This document shows, one piece after another, positions 48,112 through 64,000 of a stretch of DNA of 64,000 nt. The notes beneath the pieces are model-generated. The model saw only the letters and a program-made list of their open reading frames with translations. It did not search any database and was not told the DNA's origin. Location: positions 4,769-68,768 of the forward strand of contig JAFSOV010000007.1 in NCBI GenBank assembly GCA_017443235.1, in the 5' to 3' direction. The translations under genes and the position numbers were made by a program. The stretch comes from Alphaproteobacteria bacterium (GTDB taxonomy: Bacteria > Pseudomonadota > Alphaproteobacteria > Rs-D84). Each line of letters opens with the position of its first letter. Position 1 is the stretch's first letter.

Positions 48112-48795
48112 ATGACACGGGTAATTTGTTTTGATATCGAAACCACAGGATTTGAATACCTGCGTGGTGACCGATGCATTGAAATCGGTGCGGTCGAGGT
48201 GGTGGACGGTAAAATCACCGACAACACATTTCACGAATATATAAATCCCGAAGGCAAAATAATTCCACCCGAAACATATATGGTGCATAAAATTTCAAAT
48301 GCATTTTTGGATGACAAGCCCAAGATGTCTGTCGTTGCACCAAAATTTCTGGAATTTGTCGGCGATTCGCCAATTGTTGCGCATAACGGGTTGGACTTTG
48401 ACTTTCCGTTTGTAAATCACGAATTGGAAATGTTGGGGTTGCCACAAATTCCGCGCACGCAAATGCAGGACACTTTGGTTATCGCACGCAACCGGGTATT
48501 TGGTCCCAAAAGTTATACTTTGGATGCATTGGCAAAATGGTTTGGCGTGTCTTTGACCGCGCGTGCGGATGCGCACGGCGCATTGATAGACAGCGAAATT
48601 TTGGCCAAGGTTTATTTGGAATTGGAAAATACCGCCCCGGCACCGGAAATCGCGGATATTGTCGCCGAACAACATGCGGCATTTTTAAAGCACCCGAAAA
48701 TTGGTGGCGATTTTCCGTATCGACAATTCCCCGTGTCGGCCCAAGAAGAAAAAATTCATAATGAATTTATGGAAAAAATAAAAGTTAGTGGTTAG
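48112..48795 (+). CDS. dnaQ: DNA polymerase III subunit epsilon (3'-5' exonuclease)
   Basis: Exo I is FDIETTG, Exo II is AHNGLDFDFPF and Exo III is HGALIDSEILAKVY. The ATG at 48112 is preferred over the TTG at 48091. Confidence 0.92.
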   Translation: MTRVICFDIETTGFEYLRGDRCIEIGAVEVVDGKITDNTFHEYINPEGKIIPPETYMVHKISNAFLDDKPKMSVVAPKFLEFVGDSPIVAHNGLDFDFPFVNHELEMLGLPQIPRTQMQDTLVIARNRVFGPKSYTLDALAKWFGVSLTARADAHGALIDSEILAKVYLELENTAPAPEIADIVAEQHAAFLKHPKIGGDFPYRQFPVSAQEEKIHNEFMEKIKVSG

Positions 48796-48874
48796 TCCGT
48801 CCCGGCATCCGCTTACGCTTGCGCTACAGCGAGATATGCCGCGGCCGCGACGGGTGTTAGCGGTTAGTGGATAG
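48784..48874. repeat. Composite repeat: two direct TTAGTGG-unit arms flanking a GC-rich hairpin that contains the CGCTACAGCGAGAT motif
   Basis: The arms are gttagtggttagt (48784-48796) and gtgttagcggttagtggatag (48854-48874). Between them, ccgtcccggcat...atgccgcggccgcgacgg encloses ggcatccgcttacgcttgcgctacagcgagat, which has 3 mismatches to the 35-bp direct-repeat core. Confidence 0.8.
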
Positions 48875-49028
48875 CAAACCACAATAAAAAATCGATTCGG
48901 TCAAAAAGCACCAATTTTGATATACTATCTGGATTTCTAAGATGACTTTCTTATAATACTAGAATCATTTGACTAATTTCTTAAATTCCGCCAAAATGGA
49001 TTTGTGTTAAATTAAATGGGGGAATACT

Positions 49029-49283
49029 ATGACGCATAATGATGTATGGATGGGAATCGTGAACGTTGCACGTTGGAAAAATTTATCTTGTTCGGGTTTG
49101 GCACGATTATCCGGATTGGATTCTACGACGTTTAACAAAAGCAAGCGCACGAATCGTGACGGTTCGCCGCATTGGCCGTCAACATATACGATTGCATGCG
49201 TGTTGAACGCACTGCATATGACATTGGGTGATTTTGCAAAATTTATGCCGAACAACGGCCCGACATCCCACCAAAAGAATTAG
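49029..49283 (+). CDS. HTH DNA-binding protein, phage-repressor N-terminal-domain-like (84 aa), paralogue A
   Basis: MTHNDVW..IV..A..KNLSCSGLARLSGLDSTTFNKSKR...G.P.WPSTYTIA.VLNA. From memory this resembles the HTH half of alphaproteobacterial LexA/S24-type repressors, but no peptidase domain is present. Confidence 0.7.
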   Translation: MTHNDVWMGIVNVARWKNLSCSGLARLSGLDSTTFNKSKRTNRDGSPHWPSTYTIACVLNALHMTLGDFAKFMPNNGPTSHQKN

Positions 49284-49551
49284 TCTGGGAAATTCCGTAA
49301 AGACCAATCCGTATCGGCGTGGGCGGGCGCATTTGTCGCAGCGCCCCCAATATCGCCATTCGCATTATATGTGACCGGCCCCCGACGTTTCGGTCGGCAA
49401 ATAACTACTGGATATATCCAATTTTTTTACTTTATTTTTACAAGTTAAATTTTTTTGATACAAAAACCAACAAAATACGCGTCACAACCCACCAAATGGG
49501 ACGAACGCGCACAATTATTTCAATTTAATCAAATTAAAAAAAGAGGATACA

Positions 49552-50151
49552 ATGGCTGTAATTGGATATATTCGCGTTAGTTCTAATAAACAAACATGTG
49601 AACATCAACACTATGAAATTGAACGATTCGCACGACAAAACAGAATAAAAATAAATCGTTGGGTTGAAGAAACTATTTCGTCTAAAAAACCACTGCACAC
49701 GCGCAAACTGGGGAAATTACTAAATGAATTGCAACCCCAAGATATTTTAATTTCCTGCGAAATTTCACGATTGGGGCGATCACTGCTTGAGGTGATGCGA
49801 ATATTGGAAAATTGTTTGAGTAAAAATTGCCGTGTGTGGACGATAAAAGAAAACTATCGATTGGGCAACGATATTCAAAGCAAAGTTATGGCGTTCGCGT
49901 TCGGGTTGTCTGCGGAAATTGAACGCAACCTTATCAGTCAACGAACCAAGGCGTCTTTGGACAACCTGCGGGCACGCGGACAAAAACTGGGGCGACCATT
50001 GGCCGCGACATCAAAGAAACTGAAAATGGATAAAAACAAAATTATTGTTAGGCATATGTTGGACGCGGGACTGTCGAAATCACAAATTGCACAGAATTTC
50101 CAAATTCAAAGAATTACCCTGCGCCGATTTATGCGACGTATGGATTGGTAG
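49552..50151 (+). CDS. Small serine recombinase (resolvase/invertase family)
   Basis: 199 aa with the catalytic-Ser block VIGYIRVSSNKQ, plus ISRLGRS, ERNLISQRTKASLDNLRARGQKLGRP and a C-terminal HTH. Confidence 0.9.
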   Translation: MAVIGYIRVSSNKQTCEHQHYEIERFARQNRIKINRWVEETISSKKPLHTRKLGKLLNELQPQDILISCEISRLGRSLLEVMRILENCLSKNCRVWTIKENYRLGNDIQSKVMAFAFGLSAEIERNLISQRTKASLDNLRARGQKLGRPLAATSKKLKMDKNKIIVRHMLDAGLSKSQIAQNFQIQRITLRRFMRRMDW

Positions 50152-50162
50152 GCCGCATCGGT

Positions 50163-50414
50163 CTATCTTTCCGGGGTGGACGTGTCGTGTGATGGCATAA
50201 ATTTCACAAAATCACTCATCGTTGTACCTGTGGCGTTTAATACTTTGGCCAAACTGTACGTGGACGGCCAACGTGGTTGACCATATTTACTGAATCGTTT
50301 GCTTTTATTAAAAGTTGTTGCGTCCAGACCGGAAAACTTGGCCAAGCCCGAACAAGACATATTCTTTGACGCCGCCAATTTAACAATTGCGCGCCACAGT
50401 TCATCGTGGGTCAT
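50163..50414 (-). CDS. HTH DNA-binding protein, phage-repressor N-terminal-domain-like (83 aa), paralogue B
   Basis: About 60% identical by eye to the 49029..49283 product (MTHDELW..IV..A..KNMSCSGLAKFSGLDATTFNKSKR...G.P.WPSTYSLAKVLNA). It is in inverted orientation. Confidence 0.7.
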   Translation of the reverse strand: MTHDELWRAIVKLAASKNMSCSGLAKFSGLDATTFNKSKRFSKYGQPRWPSTYSLAKVLNATGTTMSDFVKFMPSHDTSTPER

Positions 50415-50617
50415 ACTTATCCCTCCATTTGTATAAGACTAGAATAATTTATGTTGTTCATATTATACTTGAAACATTTTCCTAGGACAAGTCTTTATAC
50501 AATGTATGTTTTCCTAAGGGACGATTTGAGTTTTTAATAAAATGTCGCGGGCGCGCCGCACTTTCAACTTGATTTTGATATAAATTAGTATATAATCGGT
50601 TTGCTCTTGAATTTATC

Positions 50618-50692
50618 GCGGGCATAGTACAAGGGCTAGTACGCAAGCCTTCCAAGCTTGATGTGCGGGTTCGAGTCCCGCTGCCCGCACCA
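50618..50692 (+). tRNA. tRNA-Gly (anticodon UCC), CCA encoded
   Basis: GCGGGCATAGTACAAGGGCTAGTACGCAAGCCTTCCAAGCTTGATGTGCGGGTTCGAGTCCCGCTGCCCGCACCA gives a clean hand-folded cloverleaf with anticodon loop CTTCCAA. Confidence 0.93.
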
Positions 50693-50804
50693 CGAATTTT
50701 CGTTATTGCGCGCATAGCGCACAATTAAGAAAATTCAGTGCCGCGGCGTAGCGAAGCGGAGACGGGCTATATCGCAAAGGCGGACATAAGTGGGAAAAAG
50801 TTCT

Positions 50805-50891
50805 GGGCGTGCGCCGGAGTTGGAGAGCCGGGGCAGACTGTAAATCTGTTGGCTTAAGCCTGAGGTGGTTCGAATCCACCCACTCCCACCA
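50805..50891 (+). tRNA. tRNA-Tyr (anticodon GUA), long variable arm, CCA encoded
   Basis: GGGCGTGCGCCGGAGTTGGAGAGCCGGGGCAGACTGTAAATCTGTTGGCTTAAGCCTGAGGTGGTTCGAATCCACCCACTCCCACCA has anticodon loop CTGTAAA and variable stem GGC/GCC. There is one C4:U69 mismatch in the acceptor stem. Confidence 0.85.
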
Positions 50892-50898
50892 AGAAATG

Positions 50899-50922
50899 CC
50901 GACCAAGTATGGTCGGTTTTTT
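50899..50922 (+). terminator. Rho-independent terminator after the tRNA-Gly/tRNA-Tyr pair
   Basis: ccgacc aagtat ggtcgg followed by tttttt. Confidence 0.8.
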
Positions 50923-51063
50923 CTTTGTCCAAACATGGCTGATTTCCGGGACGTTTTCAGGGTGTTTTGTGGTGAAAATATCTTGTATGTATATAGGGTT
51001 CGCCAAAATACGTTATTTTTCCAAAATTACATACAAAGCCGATTTTTTAACTGGAGATTCATC

Positions 51064-51933
51064 TCATATAATAAGACGCATCGCGACATTCATATCAGAA
51101 ATCCAAGGTTCTTGATTGTTATGATACAATGATAAATTGCGATCCAACTCTAGTTGTGTACTTTTGTACACAGCTTGCAATTCAACGATGTTTTGACCTT
51201 CTTTGGGGGCTATAATCTGGTTTGATATATCTTGTAGTTTTTTTACCTCATCTGTACACCAAATATGAAAGTTTTTTGAGAATTGAGCTTTTACGTTTTG
51301 CAACAATAGACTGGTGTGAAAGGATGCATACTTGTAAGCGTCTAAAATAGAGCAGTTTCCATCGCCATCAACATCTTGATTGTTGTTTTCAATAAACCAG
51401 CGAGAAAAGAAATACAGAAATATGTTTGCACACCAGGAAACTTCACTAAATTCAGCACTTAATGATTCACAAAAATTACTTGCACCAATAACACATATTT
51501 TTGATGTTGTTGGCGTATTGAAGACACCCGCAAAACACTGACCCAATAACAATAGGCCGTCAGTTAGTCCTGGAATGTTGTTTATACAGCTTAATATTTT
51601 GTTAGGATTTAATGTTGCTGCACCATCTATGTTTCCGTGTGACGACACGACACATCCTAAAAATGGTATACCAGATAATTTACCCATTTCAGTTTTAAAT
51701 TGAGATATTTCATAGACTTTATCTGTTGATATGTTTTTTAGTGCTAAAACTGATTTCAACTGCTCTACGTTATCAACAAAGAAATAAAAATTAGAATCAT
51801 TACCAGATTGTTTGGCTTTTAACTTCTCAGCAAAATTTTGTATATCAAACAAAAACCTCGGCAGATCCCTATCCATTTCAGCAATAAACACCCATACAGA
51901 ACTTTGCGCTGAAGTTTGGAGAATCTGAACCAT
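51064..51933 (-). CDS. Caspase/legumain-like (clan CD, C13-like) cysteine peptidase homologue (289 aa)
   Basis: A hydrophobic strand precedes His-Gly (FLGCVVSSHG, His99). A second strand precedes Cys (GLLLLGQCFAG, Cys133). Then come a legumain-like IGASNFCESLSA block and DVDGDGNCSILDAYKYA (a DxDGDGxxSxxEAxxY-like motif). This is motif-level evidence only. Confidence 0.5.
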   Translation of the reverse strand: MVQILQTSAQSSVWVFIAEMDRDLPRFLFDIQNFAEKLKAKQSGNDSNFYFFVDNVEQLKSVLALKNISTDKVYEISQFKTEMGKLSGIPFLGCVVSSHGNIDGAATLNPNKILSCINNIPGLTDGLLLLGQCFAGVFNTPTTSKICVIGASNFCESLSAEFSEVSWCANIFLYFFSRWFIENNNQDVDGDGNCSILDAYKYASFHTSLLLQNVKAQFSKNFHIWCTDEVKKLQDISNQIIAPKEGQNIVELQAVYKSTQLELDRNLSLYHNNQEPWISDMNVAMRLII

Positions 51934-51935
51934 AA

Positions 51936-52178
51936 TTAATCCTTTTGGAGTATAACCAAATCAGATCTATCGGCATTCTCTGGCATTTTATCAAGTGGTG
52001 GTAAAATTAACTTTCCAGTTACGTTTATTCTGAAATACAGATCGCCAACCACCATTATATATTTTGTTCCTCTATCATCAAAACCATCCTGTTGTGAATA
52101 TAACGCAATATTTCCACTCATAATTTCATTTCTTATTTGTGGCGGAAGATCTACTAATACATCATACTTTAAAATCAT
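51936..52178 (-). CDS. Hypothetical small protein (80 aa), translationally coupled to the C13-like gene
   Basis: Its stop TAA lies 2 nt before the ATG of the downstream gene. It has its own AT-rich upstream region of ~160 bp. I recognised no motif. Confidence 0.55.
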   Translation of the reverse strand: MILKYDVLVDLPPQIRNEIMSGNIALYSQQDGFDDRGTKYIMVVGDLYFRINVTGKLILPPLDKMPENADRSDLVILQKD

Positions 52179-52338
52179 ATTTGACCCTTTTGCAATGTCA
52201 TTATATCACAAATTATCCATATTTGTTATGAAATATTTAGCACATAAAAATGGAAAAATCAACTTGATAAGATACGGTTTATATACTTAACCGTCTTGAT
52301 GCAGGCATTATATCATAAAACAACATAAAAATCAAGAA

Positions 52339-53928
52339 TTAAAGCATGTTTGGCAGATTAAACAACTTATCAACACTACATTGCAACTTGCCAGACATGA
52401 TGTCATTGATAGTATGCGGGTTCATATATGCAAGTTTCAGATGTCGGTATACACTGCTTTCCGAGACATTTTCTGCTCTTGCGATTGATTTATAATCACT
52501 ATTTTTTTCATATAATTCACGATATTTAAATGCACGTGCAAATGTACGAACAATTAAATGATTATTATCAGTAATACTGATAGCACCAGATTTGCCACAG
52601 TTATATTCATTGCTTTTGTTGTATTTACTAAGAATAAATAGCTGTTCAATTATTATGGTGTCACCATTCACAATGTAATCCATTTGATTGGTTGATTCAT
52701 TTATGAAATCATCACACATAAATTGTTTCAAATCATTACTTAATTTCAAATAAAACGTCAGTTTGTTGTCGGAATAAACTACTTTATCAACAATTGTTTT
52801 TATAAATTCTCGTTTCTGCGTATACGGCAAACTTTGTACATTTACACGTTTTAACATCAATGTTATATCCGGTGGTAATTTTTGCATGTCAGAATTCAAA
52901 AAATCGATGATGGTATTCATTGCAATTTCATCAACACTAAGTGACGGAATATAAAAACCAGGTTTTGAATAGTAATATTTTATAGGTTGTCCAGATTTTC
53001 GTGTTTGTTGATTTGTGAATTTAGTACCATCTATATCAAATAATTTTCCAGTCAGTAAATTTGGTGAACCAGCATAACGATTACCTTTATGATTACCATT
53101 TCTGTTCAATGCCATTTGAACACGATTGAACAAATCTTTTTCTATGATTGCCGCATGTTCACCCTTTACAGATGTTCCACCAGATTTACAGACCATATTC
53201 CCAATATAAACTTCATCACGCAATAAATTGTGCAACGTTTGTTGATAAAATTCTGCGCCACCACGCACAACACCTTTCTTGGTTGTCCATTGCTTGTTAT
53301 GGATATTGTTTTCACGTGCGAAGCGAACTAATTCAACCACAGATTGTAATTCCAGATATTTTTCAAATAAGATTTTTACCTGTTCTGCTTCGGATTTATT
53401 AATAATCAACTTTTTATTTATTATGTCATAACCAAGTCGCGGATTACCACCAACCCAAATGCCTTTGGCTTTTGATGCACGAATTTTATCACGCACACGT
53501 TCACTGGCAACCTCGCGTTCAAACTGAGCAAATGACAGCAACATGTTCAATGTCAATTTACCCATAGAATTTGATGTGTCAAATGACTGTGTTATGGATA
53601 CAAAATTCGCACCGTATTTCTCAAAATATTTCATCATATTATGAAAGTCCAGAATTGAACGTGACAACCGGTCGACCTTATAAACAACCACTGTGTTTAC
53701 CAAACCGTGTGCCATATCGTCCAACATTTGCTTTAACGCCGGACGTTCCATAGTCCCGCCAGATATTGCCGCATCACTGTATGTTTTATAATATTGCCAA
53801 CCGTTGAATGTTTGGGACGCAATATATGCTTTGCAAGATTCTTCTTGGTTTTGCAAAGAATTGAATTCCATATCTAAACCGTGTTCGGTTGATTTGCGAA
53901 CATATATGGCACATCTATTTATCGGCAT
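52339..53928 (-). CDS. Large serine recombinase (integrase)
   Basis: 529 aa with a resolvase-type N-domain (CAIYVRKSTE catalytic Ser, VYKVDRLSRS, LSFAQFERE), followed by a recombinase domain and a long C-terminal region. Confidence 0.9.
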   Translation of the reverse strand: MPINRCAIYVRKSTEHGLDMEFNSLQNQEESCKAYIASQTFNGWQYYKTYSDAAISGGTMERPALKQMLDDMAHGLVNTVVVYKVDRLSRSILDFHNMMKYFEKYGANFVSITQSFDTSNSMGKLTLNMLLSFAQFEREVASERVRDKIRASKAKGIWVGGNPRLGYDIINKKLIINKSEAEQVKILFEKYLELQSVVELVRFARENNIHNKQWTTKKGVVRGGAEFYQQTLHNLLRDEVYIGNMVCKSGGTSVKGEHAAIIEKDLFNRVQMALNRNGNHKGNRYAGSPNLLTGKLFDIDGTKFTNQQTRKSGQPIKYYYSKPGFYIPSLSVDEIAMNTIIDFLNSDMQKLPPDITLMLKRVNVQSLPYTQKREFIKTIVDKVVYSDNKLTFYLKLSNDLKQFMCDDFINESTNQMDYIVNGDTIIIEQLFILSKYNKSNEYNCGKSGAISITDNNHLIVRTFARAFKYRELYEKNSDYKSIARAENVSESSVYRHLKLAYMNPHTINDIMSGKLQCSVDKLFNLPNML

Positions 53929-54355
53929 TTTTCGTCCTTTTGGCTATTCCAAAGAAATCTGGTCCCGATATTTTTATGCCGGTTATATCCATCGCAACTG
54001 CTGACAAAGTTCGGTATCTTTTATCGTTATACGCGAACCCGTCGTCTGTAACGACAACATTGTGTTTAATGCCACGAAATGTCTTGGTTATGGTGCTACC
54101 GATGGTTAGGTTGTATTTATTTTTATGCACCTTATCCAAACAAGCATTGGGGTTATCCTTATATTTGCGAATTTTTACCATATATTTTGGTTCTATTCGC
54201 AGTTTTAATCGGTCGCATTGAATGTAATACCACAGGGCAAAATTCTGGCGTTTGAACGGGTATTGCGAATACTTTGCCCACAATCGCCCACGTTCTGCAA
54301 ATGACAGGCGTTTTAACTCTGCCAAACTCTGCGGTAAATCAGTTTCATACGACAT
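53915..54355 (-). CDS. DUF2924-family protein (recombinase-associated)
   Basis: 146 aa. The C-terminal block GSTITKTFRGIKHNVVVTDDGFAYNDKRYRTLSAVAMDITGIKISGPDFFGI matches my recollection of DUF2924. It overlaps the recombinase start by 14 nt, which is the typical pairing. Confidence 0.7.
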   Translation of the reverse strand: MSYETDLPQSLAELKRLSFAERGRLWAKYSQYPFKRQNFALWYYIQCDRLKLRIEPKYMVKIRKYKDNPNACLDKVHKNKYNLTIGSTITKTFRGIKHNVVVTDDGFAYNDKRYRTLSAVAMDITGIKISGPDFFGIAKRTKNADK

Positions 54356-54476
54356 ATAAACTCCTTTTAACGTCGTCCAATTACCGCTCTAAAGAAGCCG
54401 AAAGTCAAGTTATTTTAAGAAAATTTCTTGAATAAATTGTATATTTATGTAGTATGTACGTCACAAGAGGTAACAA

Positions 54477-55565
54477 ATGGCATCGTTTGAAGATATACAA
54501 AATAAATTAAATGAATTACGTAGTATTATAGGAGAGATAGAACAAGTTTGGCCTACAGATCAATTAGATCAAAAAGAAAAAGTCAACGTTCTTATGCGAT
54601 TTGCAACAGATAGATTACAAAGCGAATATGTACAATTGTTGCATGTAAATGAAATTAATAATATATTTAATGCAATAAACGCTATTATTGCGGATCTTAC
54701 TAATTACAAAAATACAAAACATCCAAATTATATTCGTAATGCCGTAGCTCAAATTAATAATTTAAGAGTACAACTGAACGCGATTCCAACAAGTAGCATA
54801 AACCAAATTTCGTTAAGAAAGTTAATTGCTGAATGTTCTAAAATGAAAGATGTAAACGCGAAAACAATAGACCAATTAAGACAACAGCAAGACGATTTAA
54901 AAAGTAGAGGTGATCGGATATTAAATCAGGCAATAAATTTATTATCAAATGTTACTACTGGGGTTTTATCGAAGGAATTTGAACTAAAACGTCAAACGGA
55001 AATAGGAGGTTTGCCACAGAATTTTAAACCACTTAAATGGCTAGGCGTAAAAAAATTGGGTGTTTATCAAAAAAACACTATTGGGCTATGGTTATTATTA
55101 TTAATTATGTGTTGCATAGTTATATTTGGGGGATATCTAATTGATTATATTGTTGTTTTGGACAAACCACAAACATCATTATGGATTTATGCTTTGATAA
55201 AATTTATAGTAAGATTATCCATATTGGGACCACTAATTTGGTTAGCTATTGTGCAAAACAAAAAGATGAATTTATCAAAAAAATTAGCTGAGGAATACTG
55301 GCATAAGGAAATTATAACAAAAACATTTGTTGGATTGTCTGATCAGATTGATAAAACAACAGAAGGAGAAACGTCAAAAAAATTAAGACTAAAATTATTA
55401 GAATTGACATTAGATACAATTGCGAAAGATCCTGCAGACTGTATAGGAAACCACAATGATGCAGACAACCCCATGCATAATATTATGAAAATATCAAATA
55501 AGGGCTTGGGTAAAGTGAATGATATATTAGATATAACTAAAAAGACAAAAGAAGTTTTAGAATAA
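54477..55565 (+). CDS. Hypothetical membrane protein: N-terminal helical/coiled-coil region, 2-3 TM helices, C-terminal helical domain (362 aa)
   Basis: The TM segments are IGLWLLLLIMCCIVIFGGYLIDYIVVL and LWIYALIKFIVRLSILGPLIWLAIV. It is the first gene of a co-directional, tightly spaced four-gene block. Confidence 0.6.
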   Translation: MASFEDIQNKLNELRSIIGEIEQVWPTDQLDQKEKVNVLMRFATDRLQSEYVQLLHVNEINNIFNAINAIIADLTNYKNTKHPNYIRNAVAQINNLRVQLNAIPTSSINQISLRKLIAECSKMKDVNAKTIDQLRQQQDDLKSRGDRILNQAINLLSNVTTGVLSKEFELKRQTEIGGLPQNFKPLKWLGVKKLGVYQKNTIGLWLLLLIMCCIVIFGGYLIDYIVVLDKPQTSLWIYALIKFIVRLSILGPLIWLAIVQNKKMNLSKKLAEEYWHKEIITKTFVGLSDQIDKTTEGETSKKLRLKLLELTLDTIAKDPADCIGNHNDADNPMHNIMKISNKGLGKVNDILDITKKTKEVLE

Positions 55566-55581
55566 ATTAATTAGGCTAATA

Positions 55582-55863
55582 ATGATAAAATCGTTTAATT
55601 GTCGTGAGACAGAAAAGATTTTCAACGGCAAGTGTTCTAAGGACTTTCCTGCAGATATTCAGTCTAGAGCATTTAAGAAATTAAGCATGATTAATGCGTC
55701 TGAAAAGGTGGAAGATTTACGTCTTCCGCCATCAAATCATCTTGAAAAGTTGTCAGGAGATCGTAAGGGGCAATGGAGTATTCGTATAAACGGTAAGTAT
55801 AGAATATGTTTTACTTGGACCGAGAAAGAAGCAAATAATGTGGAGATAGTAGAATATCATTAA
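55582..55863 (+). CDS. higB: HigB-type toxin (RelE/ParE superfamily, plasmid maintenance system killer)
   Basis: 93 aa containing IKSF....TEKIF.G......P.......A.KKL..I and LRLPPSNHLEKLSGDRKGQWSIRINGKYRICFTW, which is the classic HigB pattern. Confidence 0.85.
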   Translation: MIKSFNCRETEKIFNGKCSKDFPADIQSRAFKKLSMINASEKVEDLRLPPSNHLEKLSGDRKGQWSIRINGKYRICFTWTEKEANNVEIVEYH

Positions 55864-55870
55864 ATAATAC

Positions 55871-55899
55871 TTGACTTTTCTTATTATCTATTACATAAT
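55871..55899 (+). promoter_or_regulatory. Sigma70-like promoter candidate in front of higA
   Basis: ttgact (55871-55876), a 17-nt spacer, then cataat (55894-55899). Confidence 0.35.
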
Positions 55900-55923
55900 A
55901 CATAATAAAAGAATAGGTAAGCT

Positions 55924-56265
55924 ATGTCTAACTATATTGATATTGAACATGTTGGTACTATTTTAAAAGAAGAATTCATGGAACCTTTGGGGTTGTCCAT
56001 GAATGCTTTGGCGCGTGCAATAGACGTTCCTGCTAATTATATTCATGGAATAGTTCACGGTACGCGGGGTATATCTGCAATGTTAGATTTACGTTTAACT
56101 CATTATTTTGGATTGTCTCAAGGATATTTTCTGCGTATTCAGACACATTATGATATGGTGTTGGCTTCTCGTAATATAACAAGTAAAGAATTAGCGAAAA
56201 TTATACCTTTTAGACCATTAGACAGTCGTCCTGCTAACGATGATTTTAAACGGATAGCGATGTAA
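55924..56265 (+). CDS. higA: HigA-type antitoxin (XRE-family HTH)
   Basis: 113 aa containing ILKEEFMEPLGLSMNALARAIDVPANYIHGIVHGTRGISAMLDLRLTHYFGLSQGYFLRIQTHYD. It follows higB in the toxin-first order typical of HigBA. Confidence 0.85.
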   Translation: MSNYIDIEHVGTILKEEFMEPLGLSMNALARAIDVPANYIHGIVHGTRGISAMLDLRLTHYFGLSQGYFLRIQTHYDMVLASRNITSKELAKIIPFRPLDSRPANDDFKRIAM

Positions 56266-56320
56266 ATATTTCCTTCAAAAGTCTAATTGTATGATAATAT
56301 CCTCCTAAAAGGAGACGTTT

Positions 56321-57487
56321 ATGGATATATCTAATATTTATAATTTGTCAGAAGAACAACTTGTAAAATATCAAAACAATCCATTCCCAGATGATGAAAT
56401 TAGACCGGGTTTGAAGGGTTTTGCTAAAAAATTCAAAGAGGAAATATCCGTTTTGCCGACACCATATGTTATGGCTCTTGAAGGCGGTTATGGAACAGGT
56501 AAAACGTATTTTATTACAAGATTTTGTGAGTATTTGAAAAAAGTAAATTTTGATGGAGATGAATCTATTTTTGCTATTTATTTAAATTTGTGGGAAAGGG
56601 ATTATATAGAAAATCCGTTTCCTGTCATATATTCTCAAATAATATCCGCATTGGAACCTGGTCATGAATTACAAAAATCTATAAGAGATAACGCAGTAAA
56701 AATTACAAAGAATTTGTTAAAATTTGGTGCGAAGGCATTTGGTGGGTTAGATATAAGTGAATTGTTGCCAGATCCAGAACAAGAAAAAGCTGATTTGATA
56801 TCTTTTAAACAATCAATGCAACAAGTAATTGCGGAAAAAGGCACAAAAGTTGTTTTAGTCGTCGATGAGTTGGATAGATGCAAACCTGATTATGCGGTAA
56901 AAGCTCTTGAAACACTAAAACACTTTTTTGATATAGAGGGCTTATTTGTGATATTAACTACAAAACTTGATTTTATGAACAATATATGTGAGGCATATTA
57001 TGGTCATCCCCAGTGCAAGGTTAATATGGGCGAAGGTTATATACAAAAATTTGTTCAATCAACAAAGATTTTAAATCCAACATCTAAAGAGGACTATTGG
57101 TTTATAATAAACAGGATTTTGAATAAGGATACCCTACCGGTCAGAATGCCTAATTATGGACAAGCACTAGAAAGAGACAGCGATGAAAATTTATACGCGA
57201 TTAACGGTTTTCAAAATAATATGGCTGAACTGTTTTGTACAGCTAAATTTTCAATACGTAAAACGATTGATGTTTCCAAAGAATGTTTGAATATTATCAA
57301 AAAGTATAAAGGTAAGATATGGGAACGAATATATGCTGGCTTCCCTGAGTTTATATTGATCAGGTATTTAAAAGCAAAATCTTTGATTCCAGAAAATTTT
57401 CCAGATCCAAAAGTTGGTTGGGACTACAAAACAGACTCTTCAAGAGTAAATAATTTCATCGAGGAAACTTTAAAAACATTACTATAA
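56321..57487 (+). CDS. KAP-family P-loop NTPase (short, no obvious TM insert)
   Basis: 388 aa with Walker A LEGGYGTGKTYF and the Walker B/KAP block VLVVDELDRCKPDYAVKALETLKHFF. Confidence 0.8.
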   Translation: MDISNIYNLSEEQLVKYQNNPFPDDEIRPGLKGFAKKFKEEISVLPTPYVMALEGGYGTGKTYFITRFCEYLKKVNFDGDESIFAIYLNLWERDYIENPFPVIYSQIISALEPGHELQKSIRDNAVKITKNLLKFGAKAFGGLDISELLPDPEQEKADLISFKQSMQQVIAEKGTKVVLVVDELDRCKPDYAVKALETLKHFFDIEGLFVILTTKLDFMNNICEAYYGHPQCKVNMGEGYIQKFVQSTKILNPTSKEDYWFIINRILNKDTLPVRMPNYGQALERDSDENLYAINGFQNNMAELFCTAKFSIRKTIDVSKECLNIIKKYKGKIWERIYAGFPEFILIRYLKAKSLIPENFPDPKVGWDYKTDSSRVNNFIEETLKTLL

Positions 57488-58141
57488 TGTTCTGTCTTCG
57501 ATATTGGTACGTTGGTGTTGGCGTGATAACTCCCATAACGTTTTGCCATTGTACATAAAATCTTTTGCTCCGTCTGGCAACCCTTTAATTCCATTGTTCG
57601 GGTTCGTTTGATCGCGAAATCTTTTTGCGGCAATACTTAATGTTGAACTTTCGCCATTCAAAAAGAAAACTCTCCGCCAATCATTGCCGGTTTTTACCCT
57701 TAATTTTGGCTTTGATACAAATGTCAATATAGTTCCAACGGGAATATTTAACGATTTAAATGTGATAGTTTTACGTTGGTTTTTGATTGCTACTTTTTCT
57801 TCTGGTAAAAACGCATTTTTTATTGGAACTTCGACAGCGCTACCACTTGCAATATGGACAGATAATAAGTTAATTGCATCATCAACGCTCATTTTGAAGA
57901 ACTCACGATTTGGATTGTGTCGTAATTTTGTTAACCCCTTGTGAATCAATTTTTCTATATCTTTATAATTGTTCACGCAAATTGCGAATTTTGCTTCAAA
58001 TGGTTGTGGCATGTTTTCTCCGTGTGACAATTCTTTACGGCGTTTTTCAACATCTTTTGATGTACTGCCTTGGGTCACACCAATTTTCACCAGTTCTGGA
58101 AATAACTCATTCCACATTACATAAATAATTCCACGGTTCAT
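57482..58141 (-). CDS. T5orf172 / GIY-YIG-like domain protein (219 aa)
   Basis: The N-terminus GIIYVMWNELFPELVKIGVTQGS...RRKELS...PFE...NREFF has the T5orf172 (MUG113) pattern. The C-terminal ~100 aa are uncharacterised. It converges on and overlaps the KAP gene by 6 nt. Confidence 0.7.
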   Translation of the reverse strand: MNRGIIYVMWNELFPELVKIGVTQGSTSKDVEKRRKELSHGENMPQPFEAKFAICVNNYKDIEKLIHKGLTKLRHNPNREFFKMSVDDAINLLSVHIASGSAVEVPIKNAFLPEEKVAIKNQRKTITFKSLNIPVGTILTFVSKPKLRVKTGNDWRRVFFLNGESSTLSIAAKRFRDQTNPNNGIKGLPDGAKDFMYNGKTLWELSRQHQRTNIEDRTL

Positions 58142-58158
58142 TTGGTTGCTCCTATATA

Positions 58159-58656
58159 TTACCTTGCATATCTATTCTGGTATTTATTTGTATTATAAAT
58201 TCCTGTTAGACCGCGTGTTTGTGACACTGGCACTAAACTTAAATCATTGCCCCAACCACCACATTGCAGTTCCATAAACGTTCTTCTTCCAGAAATAATA
58301 TTCACATCATCACCAACTCTACTTTCTGTTGGTAGAGCAGCTCCTGCATAATAAACCGAACTTTTTGCGTTGCCTGATATATTATGATTACCAGGCGTTA
58401 AATTTACACAAAAGTACTCATTGCCTGTACGGATATCGCCGATTGTGCGTTCATAGTTATCAATAAAAGTGAATTTTAGTCCTTTATCACAAGTGTAAGC
58501 ATCGCCAACACGTGATATACATAATTGTCCCTGTCCGTAATTCATAGGTGGCAATTTTGTTGCCACAGCATGTGTTTCAGAAACAGACAATTCCTGTATT
58601 GATGTAACACAAGCAGCTAAACTGCAAACTAACCCCAAAATTATAAAATTTTTCAT
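58159..58656 (-). CDS. Lipoprotein (165 aa), possibly DUF2846-like
   Basis: The lipobox is LVCSLAAC. The pattern FIDNYERTIGDIRTGNEYFCVNLTPGNHNISG resembles DUF2846 (from memory, weak). Confidence 0.65.
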   Translation of the reverse strand: MKNFIILGLVCSLAACVTSIQELSVSETHAVATKLPPMNYGQGQLCISRVGDAYTCDKGLKFTFIDNYERTIGDIRTGNEYFCVNLTPGNHNISGNAKSSVYYAGAALPTESRVGDDVNIISGRRTFMELQCGGWGNDLSLVPVSQTRGLTGIYNTNKYQNRYAR

Positions 58657-58680
58657 CGCGCTCTCCTTTTTTTGGTATTA

Positions 58681-58710
58681 ATTAAAAACCGCTATCATCA
58701 AGAGAGCGGT
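58681..58710 (-). terminator. Rho-independent terminator downstream of terL
   Basis: The stem accgct/agcggt is followed by a T-run on the minus strand. Confidence 0.65.
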
Positions 58711-58898
58711 TGGAGGTTAGTTACTACCAAATGAATAGTGTGGCTTATTTGGCAAATGCCTTATTCACCGACCCTCCAACCATAAGGCTGCAGGGCTATT
58801 AACGTCAGCGCTGACGCATTTGGAGAGGTAACTACACCCCAACATCGGGATCCCCGACATCAGTCCTATTTTACAATAAACATGTTGTTTTATCAAGT

Positions 58899-60347
58899 TT
58901 ATACGATAAATAAGTGTGGGGTTGGTTGCGCAATTATTTTGGTGCAGTATAGAACACCCTGTGCAAAGGCATCGCATTGGTCTTTGAATGCGGAATTTGG
59001 GAACAGCAACAATTCTTTTTCAAAATTATCCCAAAAATGGTTGTGGATTGATGGAAATAATACCGTTCCACGATAAACATATGCTGATGCACCATTCATA
59101 CGCGCAACTTTGTCTTCGTCTGGATGAACGGCTTGAATATACGTGCTACGGATACCATTTTCTGGCAAAAATTGAATAAGTTGAGTACCCGACGAAGCAT
59201 CCTCTATAACAACTTTATGTTGTGCTCTTGGATATGCTGAACATAAATAATCAAATTTAGATTTTACCATATTTGCCAAGTGCGGAAATTCAAGTTTATC
59301 GCGATAAATGTCCAACAGATAAATATGTTTGTCTGCAGAAATTCCGAACGTTATGCATGCAGAATATGCGTTTGTCGAGCCTGTTTTTGATGCGGTGTCC
59401 CAAGATGTAATTATATGCGTAAAGTTTTCGGGTATTGCCGTATAATATTGCATCCATTCAGATTTGATTATGCAACCTTCCTGGGGCGCAGGTAATTGTT
59501 GATATTGTCCAGCGAACACCAATTCACCGACACTGTTTTTGATGCGCATAACGGTTTCAATGGATTCACGTTCCGGATGTAGTGGTGTCCCAATCGTTCG
59601 CTTAAAAACACGATTTGATTGTGTGAAGTGTATTTGTTCATCCGTGTCCGCAATAATCGGCAATCGCAGGAGTTGAAAATCATCACTATTTTCTAACAGG
59701 TGTCCAGTCAGGTCATCTTGATGCAATCGCTGCATAATTAATAAAATGCGACCGGTGTTTTTATCATTTAACCGCGAAAATAACGTTGTATGATACCAAT
59801 CATTCACTCGATTTCGTATAATTTCTGAATTTGCATCAACAGGTTTTATCGGGTCGTCAATAATTATCCATTCTGCACCACGTCCAGTTAAAACACCACC
59901 AACAGATGTCGCAAAACGTCCACCATGGACGGTTGTTTCAAAATCATCTTTGGCGAATTGTTGCTTGGAAATTCGTGTTTGTGGAAACACGTGTTTATAC
60001 CAATCTGTTGTCATAACCGTTCTGGTATCATTTGCGAATTTAGTTGCCAGGTCATCAGAATAACTTACACATATTATGTGTGAACGCGGATTGTGCCCCA
60101 GTATAAACGCTGATAAAGCAACCGAACAAATGATGGATTTCATATATCGTGGCGGTATATTGATAATCAGGCGGTTTTTATTGCCATTAATAACATTAAC
60201 GATATAATCGCAAACCAGGTCGATATATTCTCCGTCTATGTATCCGCCGCCACCAGATATTTCATTGAACACTTTAATAACGAACGATTTAAAATCTGTT
60301 CGTAATAACGAATAAAACACATCTAATTCAGTAATATTATTGTCCAT
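58899..60347 (-). CDS. Phage terminase large subunit-like protein
   Basis: 482 aa with an ATPase N-domain (LIINIPPRYMKSI Walker-A-like, IIIDDPIKP Walker B) and a nuclease C-domain. It is preceded by a DUF5681-type small gene, as in alphaproteobacterial prophages and GTA-like clusters. Confidence 0.75.
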   Translation of the reverse strand: MDNNITELDVFYSLLRTDFKSFVIKVFNEISGGGGYIDGEYIDLVCDYIVNVINGNKNRLIINIPPRYMKSIICSVALSAFILGHNPRSHIICVSYSDDLATKFANDTRTVMTTDWYKHVFPQTRISKQQFAKDDFETTVHGGRFATSVGGVLTGRGAEWIIIDDPIKPVDANSEIIRNRVNDWYHTTLFSRLNDKNTGRILLIMQRLHQDDLTGHLLENSDDFQLLRLPIIADTDEQIHFTQSNRVFKRTIGTPLHPERESIETVMRIKNSVGELVFAGQYQQLPAPQEGCIIKSEWMQYYTAIPENFTHIITSWDTASKTGSTNAYSACITFGISADKHIYLLDIYRDKLEFPHLANMVKSKFDYLCSAYPRAQHKVVIEDASSGTQLIQFLPENGIRSTYIQAVHPDEDKVARMNGASAYVYRGTVLFPSIHNHFWDNFEKELLLFPNSAFKDQCDAFAQGVLYCTKIIAQPTPHLFIV

Positions 60348-60711
60348 TGTGCGATTTGACGTATTGTTGCAATATTAGTTTGTCGTCGTGATTCAGGTGT
60401 TCGCGTGCCGCGGACATGGCTTCGTATTCCGCATCTGCGACATCGCTTAATTCCATTATCCACTTTGCAGAATTCAGGTCGCCTTGTAGAGCTTTGTTGG
60501 TTTGTTTTGCGATAATGCCTTCTTTGGTACTAATACGACGACTATTGCCATCCGGACTCGTCAAAGTTATTTTGCGGTTCATTTGCTCACGCACAATCGT
60601 ATTGCGATTACGAACACCACGTGGGCGACCACGTGGATTGCCCGATTGTCCCTTTTGATATTGGTGTTCTTTTGGCGGGACACAAAACCCGCATTTTTGT
60701 TCATTAGGCAT
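60337..60711 (-). CDS. DUF5681-family protein (putative small terminase-like)
   Basis: It contains PPKEHQYQKGQSGNPRGRPRG, the hallmark GNP.GRP.G block. I trimmed the start to MPNEQK. It overlaps the terL start. Confidence 0.65.
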   Translation of the reverse strand: MPNEQKCGFCVPPKEHQYQKGQSGNPRGRPRGVRNRNTIVREQMNRKITLTSPDGNSRRISTKEGIIAKQTNKALQGDLNSAKWIMELSDVADAEYEAMSAAREHLNHDDKLILQQYVKSHNGQ

Positions 60712-62032
60712 TTTGCACCTCCTTAGCTGCATGTTTTTCCACCAACAAATCCGTATATGTTTTACCAGTACGCAGATTTATCGCATCAATACCGAATGCC
60801 TCGTAAAAACGTTTTACACAGGTATCGACATATTTCGGTTCGTATTCAATTCCATAACAAATGCGTTTATGCCGTTGCGCCGCGATAAATGTGCTGCCAG
60901 ACCCCAAGAAACAATCCAAGACGGCATCGCCAATACTTGTTACGTCCAACATAATATCGCTTAACATCTCGAAACTTTTAACGGTTGGATGCATTTTCAA
61001 ATCATTGCGGTGCGGTCCATACGAATTACATCCATAGTAATGCCAAACATTACTGCGATTGCGTCCGTATTTGCCTAATTGAATATGGTCGGGAACCTTG
61101 CCATCTTTGTTCAAGAATACAGTGCATAACTCATGCTGACTTCGGTAAGGCGTTCCCATGCCAGCCTTGTTTTTAACCCACACGCACAGGTTGATATATC
61201 GTGCAAAATTTTGTTTGCAGGCGGTCAGCATAGGCATAACGTTTCGCCAATCTATGAAATTAAAAATCATGGCATTGTCATTGGCAAATTCTGAACAAAG
61301 CGCAAAGTTTTTACCAAGAAATTCCGTATATTCGGAATCTGACATTTCCCCGGCAGCCATTGCAAAGTCTGGATGTTTAACACTGCCGTTGCCAGACACA
61401 AATCCTTTGATTTTTATATTAAACGGCGGATCTTGCAAAACCAGATTTACCCGTTTGTTACCAAGCAGTTTCGCAAAAGTATCACGATCTGTGCTGTCGC
61501 CACAAATAATTCTGTGACCGCCGTCAAATTCCCAAATATCGTCAGGGACTGTGATTATCTCATCATCCGCCACATATGGCACCGCATCCAGTTTTTTGAC
61601 TTCGGCCTTTGTACGCGGTTCTGCCAAGATTTGATCGATTTCAATGTCATTAAATCCGGTAATTGTTATGTCTGAAACATCTTCCAGTTCGCATAATTCG
61701 CTGATTTCTATATTCAAAATATCCGCATTCCATCCGCCACCATTTTCAGATATTCGATTGTCGGCAATCCGCAACTTGCGTTTTTGGACATTGGTCAAAT
61801 GTCCAATACGTATCACAGGCACTTGTGGCAGATTTAATACCTTGGCTGCCTCAAATCGTCCGTGTCCGGCGATGATTTCACCATTTTCATCAATCAAGAT
61901 TGGATTCACAAAACCGAACTGATGAATGGAATCAGCAATTTGACTAATCTGGTCTGGACTGTGAATTTTTGCGTTATTTTTATAAGGTTTTAATTGTTCA
62001 ACGTTTACGGTTTCGATTTTTAATTCTGTCAT
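60704..62032 (-). CDS. ParB-like nuclease domain fused to a DNA (N6-adenine/N4-cytosine) methyltransferase
   Basis: The ParB-N block is LKPYKNNAKIHS...ILIDENGEIIAGHGRFEAAK. The catalytic motif is LVLQDPPFN (DPPF). The SAM motif is VLDCFLGSGSTFIAA, giving beta-class order. Confidence 0.85.
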   Translation of the reverse strand: MTELKIETVNVEQLKPYKNNAKIHSPDQISQIADSIHQFGFVNPILIDENGEIIAGHGRFEAAKVLNLPQVPVIRIGHLTNVQKRKLRIADNRISENGGGWNADILNIEISELCELEDVSDITITGFNDIEIDQILAEPRTKAEVKKLDAVPYVADDEIITVPDDIWEFDGGHRIICGDSTDRDTFAKLLGNKRVNLVLQDPPFNIKIKGFVSGNGSVKHPDFAMAAGEMSDSEYTEFLGKNFALCSEFANDNAMIFNFIDWRNVMPMLTACKQNFARYINLCVWVKNKAGMGTPYRSQHELCTVFLNKDGKVPDHIQLGKYGRNRSNVWHYYGCNSYGPHRNDLKMHPTVKSFEMLSDIMLDVTSIGDAVLDCFLGSGSTFIAAQRHKRICYGIEYEPKYVDTCVKRFYEAFGIDAINLRTGKTYTDLLVEKHAAKEVQNA

Positions 62033-62101
62033 TGCATATACCTTTGGTTAATTCACAACGAATATATGCGGACAGAATCAGGGTTGCAATAACTCGTTTC
62101 T

Positions 62102-62827
62102 CTAAGCGCGCTTACCGGGTAAATGATTTATGGAAAATTCATAAATCCAGTTCGTAATTGTTTTATCACATGGGGTGATGCCACCTTTTTTGTTCGGTTT
62201 TTGCAGTGATTCGCCATATATCTCAAAGTATACATCTTTGATTTTTTGGATCGTGTCCGCTAAATGCGTTTGGGTATTGCTCGGTCTGATATTATATTCT
62301 GGTGATTGAATTATTGCTTTGCATCGTGCTTGCCTGGTACTGCGTTTTTCACCGCCGGTTTTAGCGTTCTTACCGTTAATACACACTGTTGATAAATCGT
62401 CGGTAATTCCGCGTAATGTATCAGTGCGCATAAACAGCAATCTTATGTCCTTGGGTAATTTTAATTGGTCGGGGGCGGTCATTTGTTGCCATATCTGGTC
62501 AATCAAAATAAAGACTTCGCCAATAAGGAACAGTTTATTTTCTTTACTTGATTTGACGCCTGCGGTTCGCCACAGTTCTTTTTCGTAATTAGGTTGAATA
62601 TATAATTTTCGATTTCCATGGGTTAAAAAGCCGACTAAATCACAGCCATATTTTTGGGCGATATTTGCCATCAAATCATGAATATTTGCGGTTAAAACAT
62701 CATATTGTTTATGTTTTAATTTTTCAGAAATATCTGGGCGTATAATTCCCCAAGCGGTGAGCGCAATGCTTAAGTGGGCTTGAAATAAAGATTGGAATTT
62801 AAAATTATCAGTAAAAAAATCGGTCAT
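62102..62827 (-). CDS. Hypothetical protein (241 aa)
   Basis: Coding-looking ORF co-directional with the methylase gene. I recognised no motif. Confidence 0.5.
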   Translation of the reverse strand: MTDFFTDNFKFQSLFQAHLSIALTAWGIIRPDISEKLKHKQYDVLTANIHDLMANIAQKYGCDLVGFLTHGNRKLYIQPNYEKELWRTAGVKSSKENKLFLIGEVFILIDQIWQQMTAPDQLKLPKDIRLLFMRTDTLRGITDDLSTVCINGKNAKTGGEKRSTRQARCKAIIQSPEYNIRPSNTQTHLADTIQKIKDVYFEIYGESLQKPNKKGGITPCDKTITNWIYEFSINHLPGKRA

Positions 62828-63210
62828 CTAAATCTCCTTAATTTTATGCCAAATGTTACCTGACGGAACACATGAAATACAGTAAAAACGACAATTGCGT
62901 AAAATCAAAGGGTTGTCCGCCAAAAATCGCTGATATTTAAAATATTTTCCCTGTTATTTTTGTGATCATTCTCTGATGATATGCAGAAAAACCGGTGTTT
63001 TCACAAAATTTGTGCAAAAATCACTATAACAAAATCCCTGCAAATCCCTGTTATCTTGTATGTGAAAAACCGTACTAATTTACAACTCCACCAAAAGATA
63101 CACCGCACCATTAAAGTGCGGTTTTCTTTTAGATTTCCAATACTTTTAATGGTTTGAAGAAAGCATATCCAAAAAACACCGTTTTTTACCAATCTTCGAA
63201 CAAATTTATA

Positions 63211-63238
63211 AAAAAGGTTAGAAAACTAACCTTTTTTA
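63211..63238 (-). terminator. Rho-independent terminator after the ART-like ORF
   Basis: aaaaaggttagaaaactaacctttttt: a 7-bp stem flanked by A/T runs, 16 nt past the stop at 63254. Confidence 0.75.
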
Positions 63239-63253
63239 TCTGTCTACCCTATT

Positions 63254-63925: not shown

Positions 63926-64000
63926 CGGGTGAAATTAACCATTTTTCTTTAAACTCTTTTATCCGTTGCATTAAATCAGCAAATTCTTGTTTGTTTTCTG
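63906..64000 (-). CDS. 3' end of an unidentified gene (runs off window end)
   Basis: My translation of the minus strand reads ...ENKQEFADLMQRIKEFKEKWLISPDGEKFD*. Its stop overlaps the annotated start of the next ORF. Confidence 0.4.
   Translation of the reverse strand, partial: ENKQEFADLMQRIKEFKEKWLISPDGEKFD

Follow-up and report, generated by a model that had tools for sequence, protein, structure and literature searches.

An Mpi-like recombinase gene between two S24-less repressor-type genes in a Candidatus Enterousia genome, with a putative CTAG-centred operator

What is a small serine recombinase gene doing between two inverted helix-turn-helix (HTH) repressor-like genes and a pair of near-identical 19-bp direct repeats? 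The arrangement lies in a 64,000-nucleotide stretch of DNA, here called the window (G000:C4:4769-68768), from a genome of 985 kb in 18 contigs (94% complete) that is assigned to Candidatus Enterousia by the names of close homologues. Sections of one source (PMC12306168) describe Candidatus Enterousia, of order Rs-D84 in the Alphaproteobacteria, as gut bacteria with reduced genomes. An earlier note, made from the letters of this DNA, had pointed to an HTH gene pair facing each other around a 199-aa resolvase/invertase gene, the whole wedged between dnaQ and a tRNA pair, and every part was found where it had been placed (HTH1, REC, and HTH2, with dnaQ upstream and tRNA-Gly and tRNA-Tyr downstream; Table 1). 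Genome-wide there are four HTH paralogues (HTH1-HTH4) and three REC paralogues. We consider it likely that the locus forms no mobile or invertible cassette, and that it holds an Mpi-like recombinase together with HTH genes that lack an S24 domain and have a 19-mer operator of their own. Seen by itself, the locus amounts to an ordinary juxtaposition of an invertase gene with a putatively autoregulated small repressor gene on either side.

The distribution of the 19-mer carries much of this reading. Copies a and b, upstream of HTH1 and HTH2, respectively, are identical at 17 of 19 positions and both lie on the plus strand, as had been described. Two further copies were found beyond these, one at 50461-50479 (copy c, 16/19) and one upstream of HTH3, a gene 1.7 kb past the window end (C4:70505-70753) whose product is 98% identical to HTH2. 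When the whole genome was searched with up to three mismatches allowed, the only matches were the copy before HTH1, the two before HTH2, the one before HTH3, and a single three-mismatch match on contig C9, and this distribution exceeds chance. The core ACTAGAAT(C/T)ATTTGA is kept upstream of HTH1 in three relatives (G191, G055, and G161). The ACTAGAAT core is also found upstream of HTH2-type genes in G055 and in G012, a genome with no REC-like gene at E <= 1e-10, and copy b is likewise kept before HTH3. G017 is a further case, with no recombinase near its HTH gene pair and a CTAG dyad before each copy. The 19-mer is unlike either kind of recombinase-associated site described below. Its occurrence with HTH genes, including those of G012 and G017, supports the "shared operator" that the earlier note had listed among its options. 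We read these patterns as tying the 19-mer to the HTH genes and not to the recombinase, and the 19-mer is best read as a putative operator of the HTH family. The two remaining REC paralogues have CTAG motifs nearby as well; these sit in unrelated sequence context and do not resemble the operators.

The tetranucleotide at the center of the motif is rare and strongly avoided in this genome (202 CTAG in 985 kb). Of its 10 CCTAGG sites, three are upstream of HTH2, HTH3, and HTH4. The few CCTAGG and CTAGAAT sites of the genome cluster before HTH-family genes. For 29 HTH-family genes from this and related genomes, CTAG lies no more than 140 nt upstream in 18, against a background at the same loci of 0.45 per kb that includes the HTH-upstream sites themselves. 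Its distance from the ATG is exactly 70–71 nt in eight of the 29: HTH1-4, L014, the G055 orthologue of HTH1, and, from a different family of the order, the two copies of G040. The HTH1 orthologue of G191, outside the 29, also has CTAG at -70. From this position in the family it follows that copy a is the -70 site of HTH1; HTH2 and HTH3 have CCTAGG at -71, inside the predicted -35 hexamer. The dyad is imperfect, with 5–6 of 9 symmetric positions by our own count, and it is placed where operators of repressors are typically found. At HTH1 it overlaps the predicted -35, and at HTH2 and HTH3 it falls between the predicted -10 and the ribosome-binding site, so that each gene is probably autorepressed via the 19-mer. 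The HTH genes described here would then define an S24-less repressor-domain family with a position-fixed CTAG putative operator in otherwise CTAG-avoiding genomes.

The HTH proteins themselves are paralogous, as had been claimed; the identity of HTH1 and HTH2, which had been put at about 60%, was measured as 55% (46/83 residues, BLASTP E 4e-36). Orthologues of HTH1 are 95% identical in G191, 87% in G055, and 83% in G161. A search of 41 genomes of the order found the family in 37, and in the genus it is present in 24 of 24 genomes besides this one, at 1–7 matches per genome. Longer homologues of HTH2 number 62 at E <= 0.001, most of them about 208 aa and with a Peptidase_S24 domain (PF00717). 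They are 52–65% identical to HTH2 over 84–100% of its length, and where PF00717 is present the identity of this N-terminal part is 54–63%, which bears out the proposed resemblance to the DNA-binding half of S24 repressors. The other half is indeed missing, as had also been proposed: HTH1 and HTH2 end at 83–84 aa, and PF00717 has no match in the whole genome (94% complete), while control genomes do match. One source labels short homologues [quoted passage not shown] The genome encodes RecA, and the four truncated HTH genes are the sole relatives of S24 repressors there; since no S24 domain was found, no LexA-type repressor was found either. These comparisons indicate an origin of the HTH proteins in the N-terminal domain of S24 (LexA/CI-like) repressors of Alphaproteobacteria, with loss of the self-cleaving half. 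Since that half is missing, RecA-triggered cleavage could not inactivate them.

An AlphaFold2 (AF2) model of HTH2 (pLDDT 89) has five helices, at residues 3–16, 21–27, 32–37, 52–62, and 66–70, and so has the five-helix XRE fold; the best Foldseek rows are all XRE-type, among them prophage Lp1 protein 11, ClgR, and restriction-modification controller proteins, at probabilities of 0.9–1.0. The ratio of non-synonymous to synonymous substitution rates (dN/dS) of HTH1 is 0.07 vs. G161, and HTH2 and HTH3 differ by 13 synonymous and 2 non-synonymous codons. These values indicate that HTH1, HTH2, and HTH3 are maintained genes. In G161, HTH2 is cut to about 30 codons.

REC is a small serine recombinase. 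It matches the Pfam Resolvase model (PF00239) with 110.8 bits over model positions 1–144 of 145, and its residues 5–11, GYIRVSS, contain the YxRVS motif of the serine nucleophile. For a C-terminal HTH domain, HTH_7 gives 15.8 bits and HTH_23 gives 17.3 bits, both under the cut-offs; the length of 199 aa fits the range of about 180–210, and alignments to Gin and gamma-delta resolvase extend to residues 189–194. REC also matches PHROG 125 ("DNA invertase"), and its nearest solved chains are Gin (4m6f, E 2.7e-8, the best by sequence), Bin3, and the gamma-delta/Tn3 resolvases. With the Mpi family model NF009949 it aligns end to end at 267.8 bits, and the same model gives 254.2 and 258.9 for the other two REC paralogues, 271.5 for the copy in G040, and 260.4 for the G161 orthologue. 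Because all of these scores are near-misses, we call REC Mpi-like and not a member of the Mpi family. By analogy, REC may work like Mpi of Bacteroides fragilis. REC-like genes are present in 110 of 151 genomes of the order, with orthologues of REC at 93% identity in G191, 79% in G161, and 77% in G055, and a dN/dS of 0.04–0.16 points to purifying selection on REC. The third REC paralogue (locus L007, G000:C13:119594-123803) lies between a tyrosine-integrase-family gene and a gene whose 819-aa product has an N6 DNA-methylase domain, and the locus may be a separate mobile or phase-variable unit.

What REC acts on is suggested by the DNA beside its orthologues. Upstream regions were examined at 34 loci, comprising 31 from relatives with 62–74% identity and those of this genome, G055, and G161. 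At 25 of the 34, an inverted repeat is made up of one site like ACAAACCAACGAT on the left and one like ATCGTTCTATTAAA on the right, 110–135 bp apart, and the right-hand site lies 37–62 nt before the start codon of the REC orthologue. The inner segment of these 25 has the reference orientation in 12 (the reference included) and is reverse-complemented in three (G132:C7, G132:C20, and G044:C7:254247); in the other 10 it was not assignable by a crude score. At least four of the first-examined loci have a gene for a signal-peptide protein (>400 aa) divergent from REC across the segment. We read the segments adjacent to REC orthologues as invertible promoter segments caught in both states. This form of segment (AACGAT...ATCGTT, 110–135 bp), distinct from the palindromic one described below, was seen in other Enterousia genomes at loci L059-L066 and L118-L139. 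At nine of the 34 loci, those of this genome, G055, and G161 among them, one or both sites of this pattern are absent.

The closest relatives suggest what happened at the locus itself. We also drew on four public runs (X1, X4, X5, and X6), which were examined as contigs and not as reads, so that rare variants are invisible. In G191 the order is dnaQ (98%), 19-mer, HTH1 (95%), a minus-strand signal-peptide gene, a palindromic site pair, REC (93%), and HTH2 (93%). The order in G161 is similar, with a palindromic site pair before REC and a shortened HTH2, and G055 has a signal-peptide gene between HTH1 and REC, with sites reduced to degenerate remains. The strain of run X6 has G191-type sequence immediately before REC. 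In this genome and in the strain of run X5, the 268-bp spacer stands in place of the surface-protein gene and switch; one degenerate half-site, by our reading, is left in that of this genome. The comparison thus argues that this genome deleted a surface-protein gene and its promoter switch between HTH1 and REC. A search of this genome for the left- and right-arm site pattern of the REC orthologues gave nothing convincing, the sites of this genome being of a different, GGTAC-centered form. A 12/12 inverted repeat across the REC start (49412-49423/49560-49571), tried as a local switch, is absent in G055 and was taken as chance. In the switch beside REC of G191 (L155 1356-1500, reverse complement), the inner promoter appears directed at REC, and therefore invertase expression there might depend on the state of the switch.

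Sites of the palindromic form are dispersed over the rest of this genome. A ~31-bp palindrome that reads GGTCACAAAAAA-G/C-GTAC-G/C-TTTTTTGTGACC was found at 32 sites, nearly all of them paired at 85–87 bp (at least 16 pairs), and most pairs stand directly before paralogous genes for signal-peptide proteins of 165–340 aa. They lie on contigs C2, C3, C5, C6, C7, C11, C13, C15, and C17 (none in the window), several of them <1 kb from a contig end. Two loci, C2:52057 and C15:75607, have identical flanks and the inner segment in opposite orientation. Judged by the inner promoter, four loci would be ON and seven OFF. For one protein whose gene stands behind such a switch, Pfam gave no match to an N-terminal stretch of 40 residues.

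Across the 111 genomes of the genus, the exact palindrome form occurs in this genome, G055, and G191 only. In G191, the closest relative, the REC orthologue is the sole REC-like gene and there are about 53 core sites; in G161 one REC-like gene goes with about five sites, one of them 35 nt before REC; and G012 has neither a REC-like gene nor palindromic sites. Because REC-like gene and sites co-occur in this way across G191, G161, and G012, REC is the best candidate invertase for the switches. The value of the module is that it names the best candidate enzyme for many secreted-protein promoter switches in Candidatus Enterousia, an uncultured lineage with genomes of ~1 Mb. Among the papers listed by literature searches, none links Enterousia or Rs-D84 to invertases or phase variation, and the word "recombinase" is absent from the one Enterousia paper searched.

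Put together, these observations suggest the following course of events. Ancestrally, as in the closest relatives, REC would have had a surface-protein gene and a short invertible promoter segment of its own as neighbors. In this genome both would have been deleted, leaving the 268-bp spacer, with REC staying intact. The gene would have been kept because it most likely acts in trans on dispersed switches, flipping the at least 16 similar ones before paralogous secreted-protein genes. The HTH proteins, for their part, would bind the 19-mer operator at their own promoters, so that each HTH gene is probably autorepressed.

Several observations weigh against this account. REC does not reach the curated NF009949 cut-off of 272, and the two other REC paralogues score almost as well as REC on that model, so that one of these may be the acting paralogue in this genome. 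As for the HTH proteins, Pfam HTH_26 scores below its cut-off (13.5 and 17.8 vs. 22) and the Foldseek E-values are weak (0.03 or higher). CTAG is absent within 140 nt upstream of 11 of the 29 HTH-family genes. The 17/19 identity of the 19-mers reaches beyond the dyad core, which is more than a simple shared operator requires, and the 19-mer is oriented oppositely relative to HTH1 and HTH2, which such an operator does not require either. The adjacency of HTH and REC genes beside dnaQ recurs in a second family (G040), and chance explains this poorly. The support from the contigs of the four runs, which contain neither a ~1480-bp skip joint nor an inversion of the unit, is weak given that contigs drop rare variants.

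The earlier note had offered two recombinational uses for the repeats, a res-like or excisable cassette and a Hin/Gin-style invertible segment, and neither was borne out. For REC to excise HTH1-REC-HTH2 as a 1.48-kb circle, or to resolve at the 19-mers, seems highly improbable to us, even with direct 19-mers 1480 bp apart around a serine recombinase gene and with a central TA of CTAG that has the symmetry of some resolvase crossover sites. In each of X1, X4, and X5, a single contig runs from copy a across HTH1 and REC and into HTH2. No tRNA lies within 1.5 kb of dnaQ in 29 relatives, so that no empty site was seen; homology with unit-less genomes ends at the dnaQ stop and about 120 bp past copy b, not at the 19-mers; and copies of the 19-mer also stand before HTH3 and before HTH genes of REC-less genomes. 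The shared sequence amounts to only 19 nt, with no three-subsite res architecture. As for inversion of the unit, the 19-mers are direct, where inverted crossover sites would be expected, and HTH1(+)-REC(+)-HTH2(-) was seen in a single orientation in six assemblies or strains (this genome, G191, G055, G161, and the strains of X5 and X6). The heterogeneity in orientation or excision that had been proposed as a check was thus not seen, in the contigs of the four runs only. A larger, Gin-like inversion would have REC flip the segment between the HTH2 and HTH3 repeats, with the tRNAs, two small open reading frames (ORFs), and a prophage remnant in it, and the 19-mers that are inverted between the copies would serve as crossovers. 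Here the 380-bp inverted repeat is 91% identical (coding 235/252, upstream 111/130) and REC abuts one copy; near-identical inverted HTH pairs around 1.3–2.4 kb recur in G040, where an Mpi-like gene abuts one copy of the repeat, and in G017; and assemblies break inside the repeats in G055, G191, and run X6, so that the orientation is not resolved there. However, the orientation is the same wherever the repeats are bridged (the whole segment in this genome and G161, the tRNA part in X5), the synonymous differences between HTH2 and HTH3 speak against recent homogenization, and inversion would swap equivalent promoters with no obvious effect. With the G017 pair lacking a nearby recombinase and the 19-mer unlike the sites tied to the REC family, we regard such an inversion as improbable.

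A different kind of alternative links the regulators to the invertase: HTH1 and/or HTH2 would control REC transcription or act as accessory factors, and so set the genome-wide switching rate. The order HTH1...REC...HTH2 is kept in G191, G055, G161, and the X5 and X6 strains, and the Mpi-like gene next to dnaQ in G040 has a co-oriented HTH gene 145 bp upstream. A consensus scan of 48780-50640 lists no REC promoter and no terminator-like site on the plus strand, which makes read-through from HTH1 possible. Against this, HTH genes lie within the fetched 1.5–3 kb of only five of 52 REC-family loci, four of them in one clade (this genome, G191, G055, and G161) and the fifth in G040, and the remaining 47 have none; the unusual recombinase-regulator module that had been proposed thus finds weak support, from two independent lineages. 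G191, G161, and G055 have an opposite-strand gene between HTH1 and REC and hence no conserved operon, the HTH2 of G161 is truncated with REC intact there, and the HTH family is far wider in distribution than the REC neighborhoods. On balance we think such control unlikely. A fuller version, to which we likewise give little credence, has the HTH pair bracketing a master invertase locus, with CTAG operators gating the amount of invertase, and hence the flipping rate of the surface-protein switches, and with the local deletion having fused REC to the HTH1 unit. If true, a ~1-Mb host-associated genome would have a transcriptional governor dedicated to its global phase variation. We therefore retain the reading of an Mpi-like invertase that neighbors, by juxtaposition, HTH genes with an operator of their own.

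The surroundings of the module are variable on one side of dnaQ and conserved on the other. The uvrD-dnaQ synteny is kept in the dnaQ loci of 29 of 29 relatives, whereas beyond the dnaQ stop codon most relatives share no homology with this genome. In G014, the gene directly after dnaQ is a homologue of the one that follows HTH3 here. Given this arrangement and the end of homology at the dnaQ stop, the stretch from HTH1 to HTH3 is a variable region 3' of dnaQ. In G040, the Mpi-like gene lies between dnaQ and the inverted HTH copy of a 327-bp pair, and an HTH-family gene lies about 215 bp after dnaQ in four of 13 other genomes of the same genus, g3 (G031, G065, G026, and G084; L142-L145). The 3' side of dnaQ is thus a recurrent location of these genes, and HTH-bearing modules may have a preference for the dnaQ and tRNA flanks. 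Inverted HTH pairs were seen in three lineages, in this genome (380 bp, 91%), in G040 (L100, 1902-2228/3576-3902; 327 bp, 95%), and in G017 (L099, 2738-3278/5495-6031; 541 bp, 97%); they bracket short segments, often beside tRNA genes.

Between the HTH2 and HTH3 repeat copies lie tRNA-Gly(tcc), tRNA-Tyr(gta), a low-GC prophage remnant, HxlR-type and cupin genes, and the two small ORFs. The genes of the remnant encode a large serine recombinase, a DUF2924 protein, a HigB-type toxin with an HTH partner, a KAP NTPase, a T5orf172 protein, a terminase, and a ParB-methylase. In contigs of X5 and X6, which come from other studies and from strains about 98% alike, the 3' end of tRNA-Tyr is joined to the far side of the remnant, with 14,233 and 14,316 bases skipped, respectively. 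The remnant-free joint is clean, with eight shared bases in X6, and without the remnant the repeat copies are only about 0.8 kb apart. An "opposite strands" joint (2286/17380) in X5 and X6 does not show an inversion; it arises from a contig whose two ends lie within the two repeat copies.

The GC-rich repeat directly 3' of dnaQ has copies of 22–76 nt at 87–100% identity on contigs C13, C5, C7, C6, C8, and C2. Public-run contigs stop within it, and G161 lacks it at this position. An Rfam scan of 48700-51000 returned the two tRNAs and no further match, and the predicted folds of the HTH leaders, this repeat, and the spacer were no better than those of shuffled sequence. Coordinates are collected in Table 1.

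Table 1. Features of the recombinase locus and its flanks, in window coordinates
Feature	Position	Strand	Remarks
dnaQ (DNA polymerase III epsilon)	48112..48795	+	core gene, left flank; NCBIfam TIGR01406 and Pfam RNase_T
GC-rich dispersed repeat, REP-like (repetitive extragenic palindrome-like)	48784..48870		outside the module, directly 3' of dnaQ
19-mer copy a, putative operator	48952..48970	+	CTAG-centered dyad at -70 of HTH1; overlaps predicted -35 hexamer
Predicted sigma-70-type HTH1 promoter, TTGACT-17-CAAAAT	48969..48997	+	consensus scan, 9/12 positions
HTH1, predicted XRE/Cro-type DNA-binding protein, 84 aa	49029..49283	+	S24-less repressor N-domain
Spacer, 268 bp	49284..49551		between HTH1 and REC
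REC, small serine recombinase, 199 aa	49552..50151	+	Mpi-like DNA-invertase kind
HTH2, 83 aa	50163..50414	-	paralogue of HTH1
Inverted repeat, 380 bp, left copy	50164..50543		HTH2 and upstream; partner at HTH3, C4:70377-70755
19-mer copy b	50432..50450		second CTAG site, at -28 of HTH2; between predicted -10 and ribosome-binding site
19-mer copy c	50461..50479		weaker (16/19); overlaps HTH2 -10 TATAAT at 50467-50462 (-)
Predicted HTH2 promoter, TTGTCC-17-TATAAT	50462..50490	-	10/12 positions; CCTAGG 50481-50486 in -35
tRNA-Gly(tcc)	50618..50692	+	single-copy in genome
tRNA-Tyr(gta)	50805..50891	+	single-copy in genome
Prophage remnant, ~14.2 kb	50885..64000		at 3' end of tRNA-Tyr; continues ~1.1 kb past window end

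Among known systems, Mpi, the master DNA invertase of Bacteroides fragilis, offers the closest parallel to the recombinase. Both are serine recombinases of about 200 aa, with REC aligned end to end with the family model; orthologues of REC lie beside promoter segments flanked by inverted repeats before genes for surface molecules, and many segments are dispersed per genome. REC differs in scoring 4 bits under the family cut-off, in its host, a ~1-Mb alphaproteobacterium, and in its targets, which would be genes for small secreted proteins rather than polysaccharide loci. The sites here are ~31-bp palindromes 85–87 bp apart, whose core may fit the repeat consensus published for Mpi, and the REC copy of this genome has lost its adjoining switch. 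With Hin, Gin, Cin, and Pin the locus shares a small serine invertase gene beside DNA bounded by inverted sequences, Gin being the best structure match. It differs from them in that the bracketing 19-mers are direct, only a single orientation was found, and the inverted HTH genes are 55%-identical paralogues and not crossover sites.

The HTH proteins resemble two groups of regulators. With the alphaproteobacterial HTH-S24 repressors (COG2932; the LexA and lambda CI kind) they share the N-terminal DNA-binding domain, at 54–63% identity, whereas they lack the S24 half and no S24 domain was found in their genome. They differ from the restriction-modification C proteins and other small XRE autoregulators (C.Esp1396I, C.BclI, ClgR, and Lp1 protein 11) in having about 20% identity to them with weak Foldseek E-values, no adjoining restriction-modification genes, and a family-specific CTAG center in the putative operator. 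The likeness to these small regulators, which are the top structural neighbors, lies in a size of about 80 aa, a five-helix XRE fold with a template modeling (TM) score of ~0.6–0.7, and an imperfect dyad over the genes' own predicted promoters, which suggests autoregulation.

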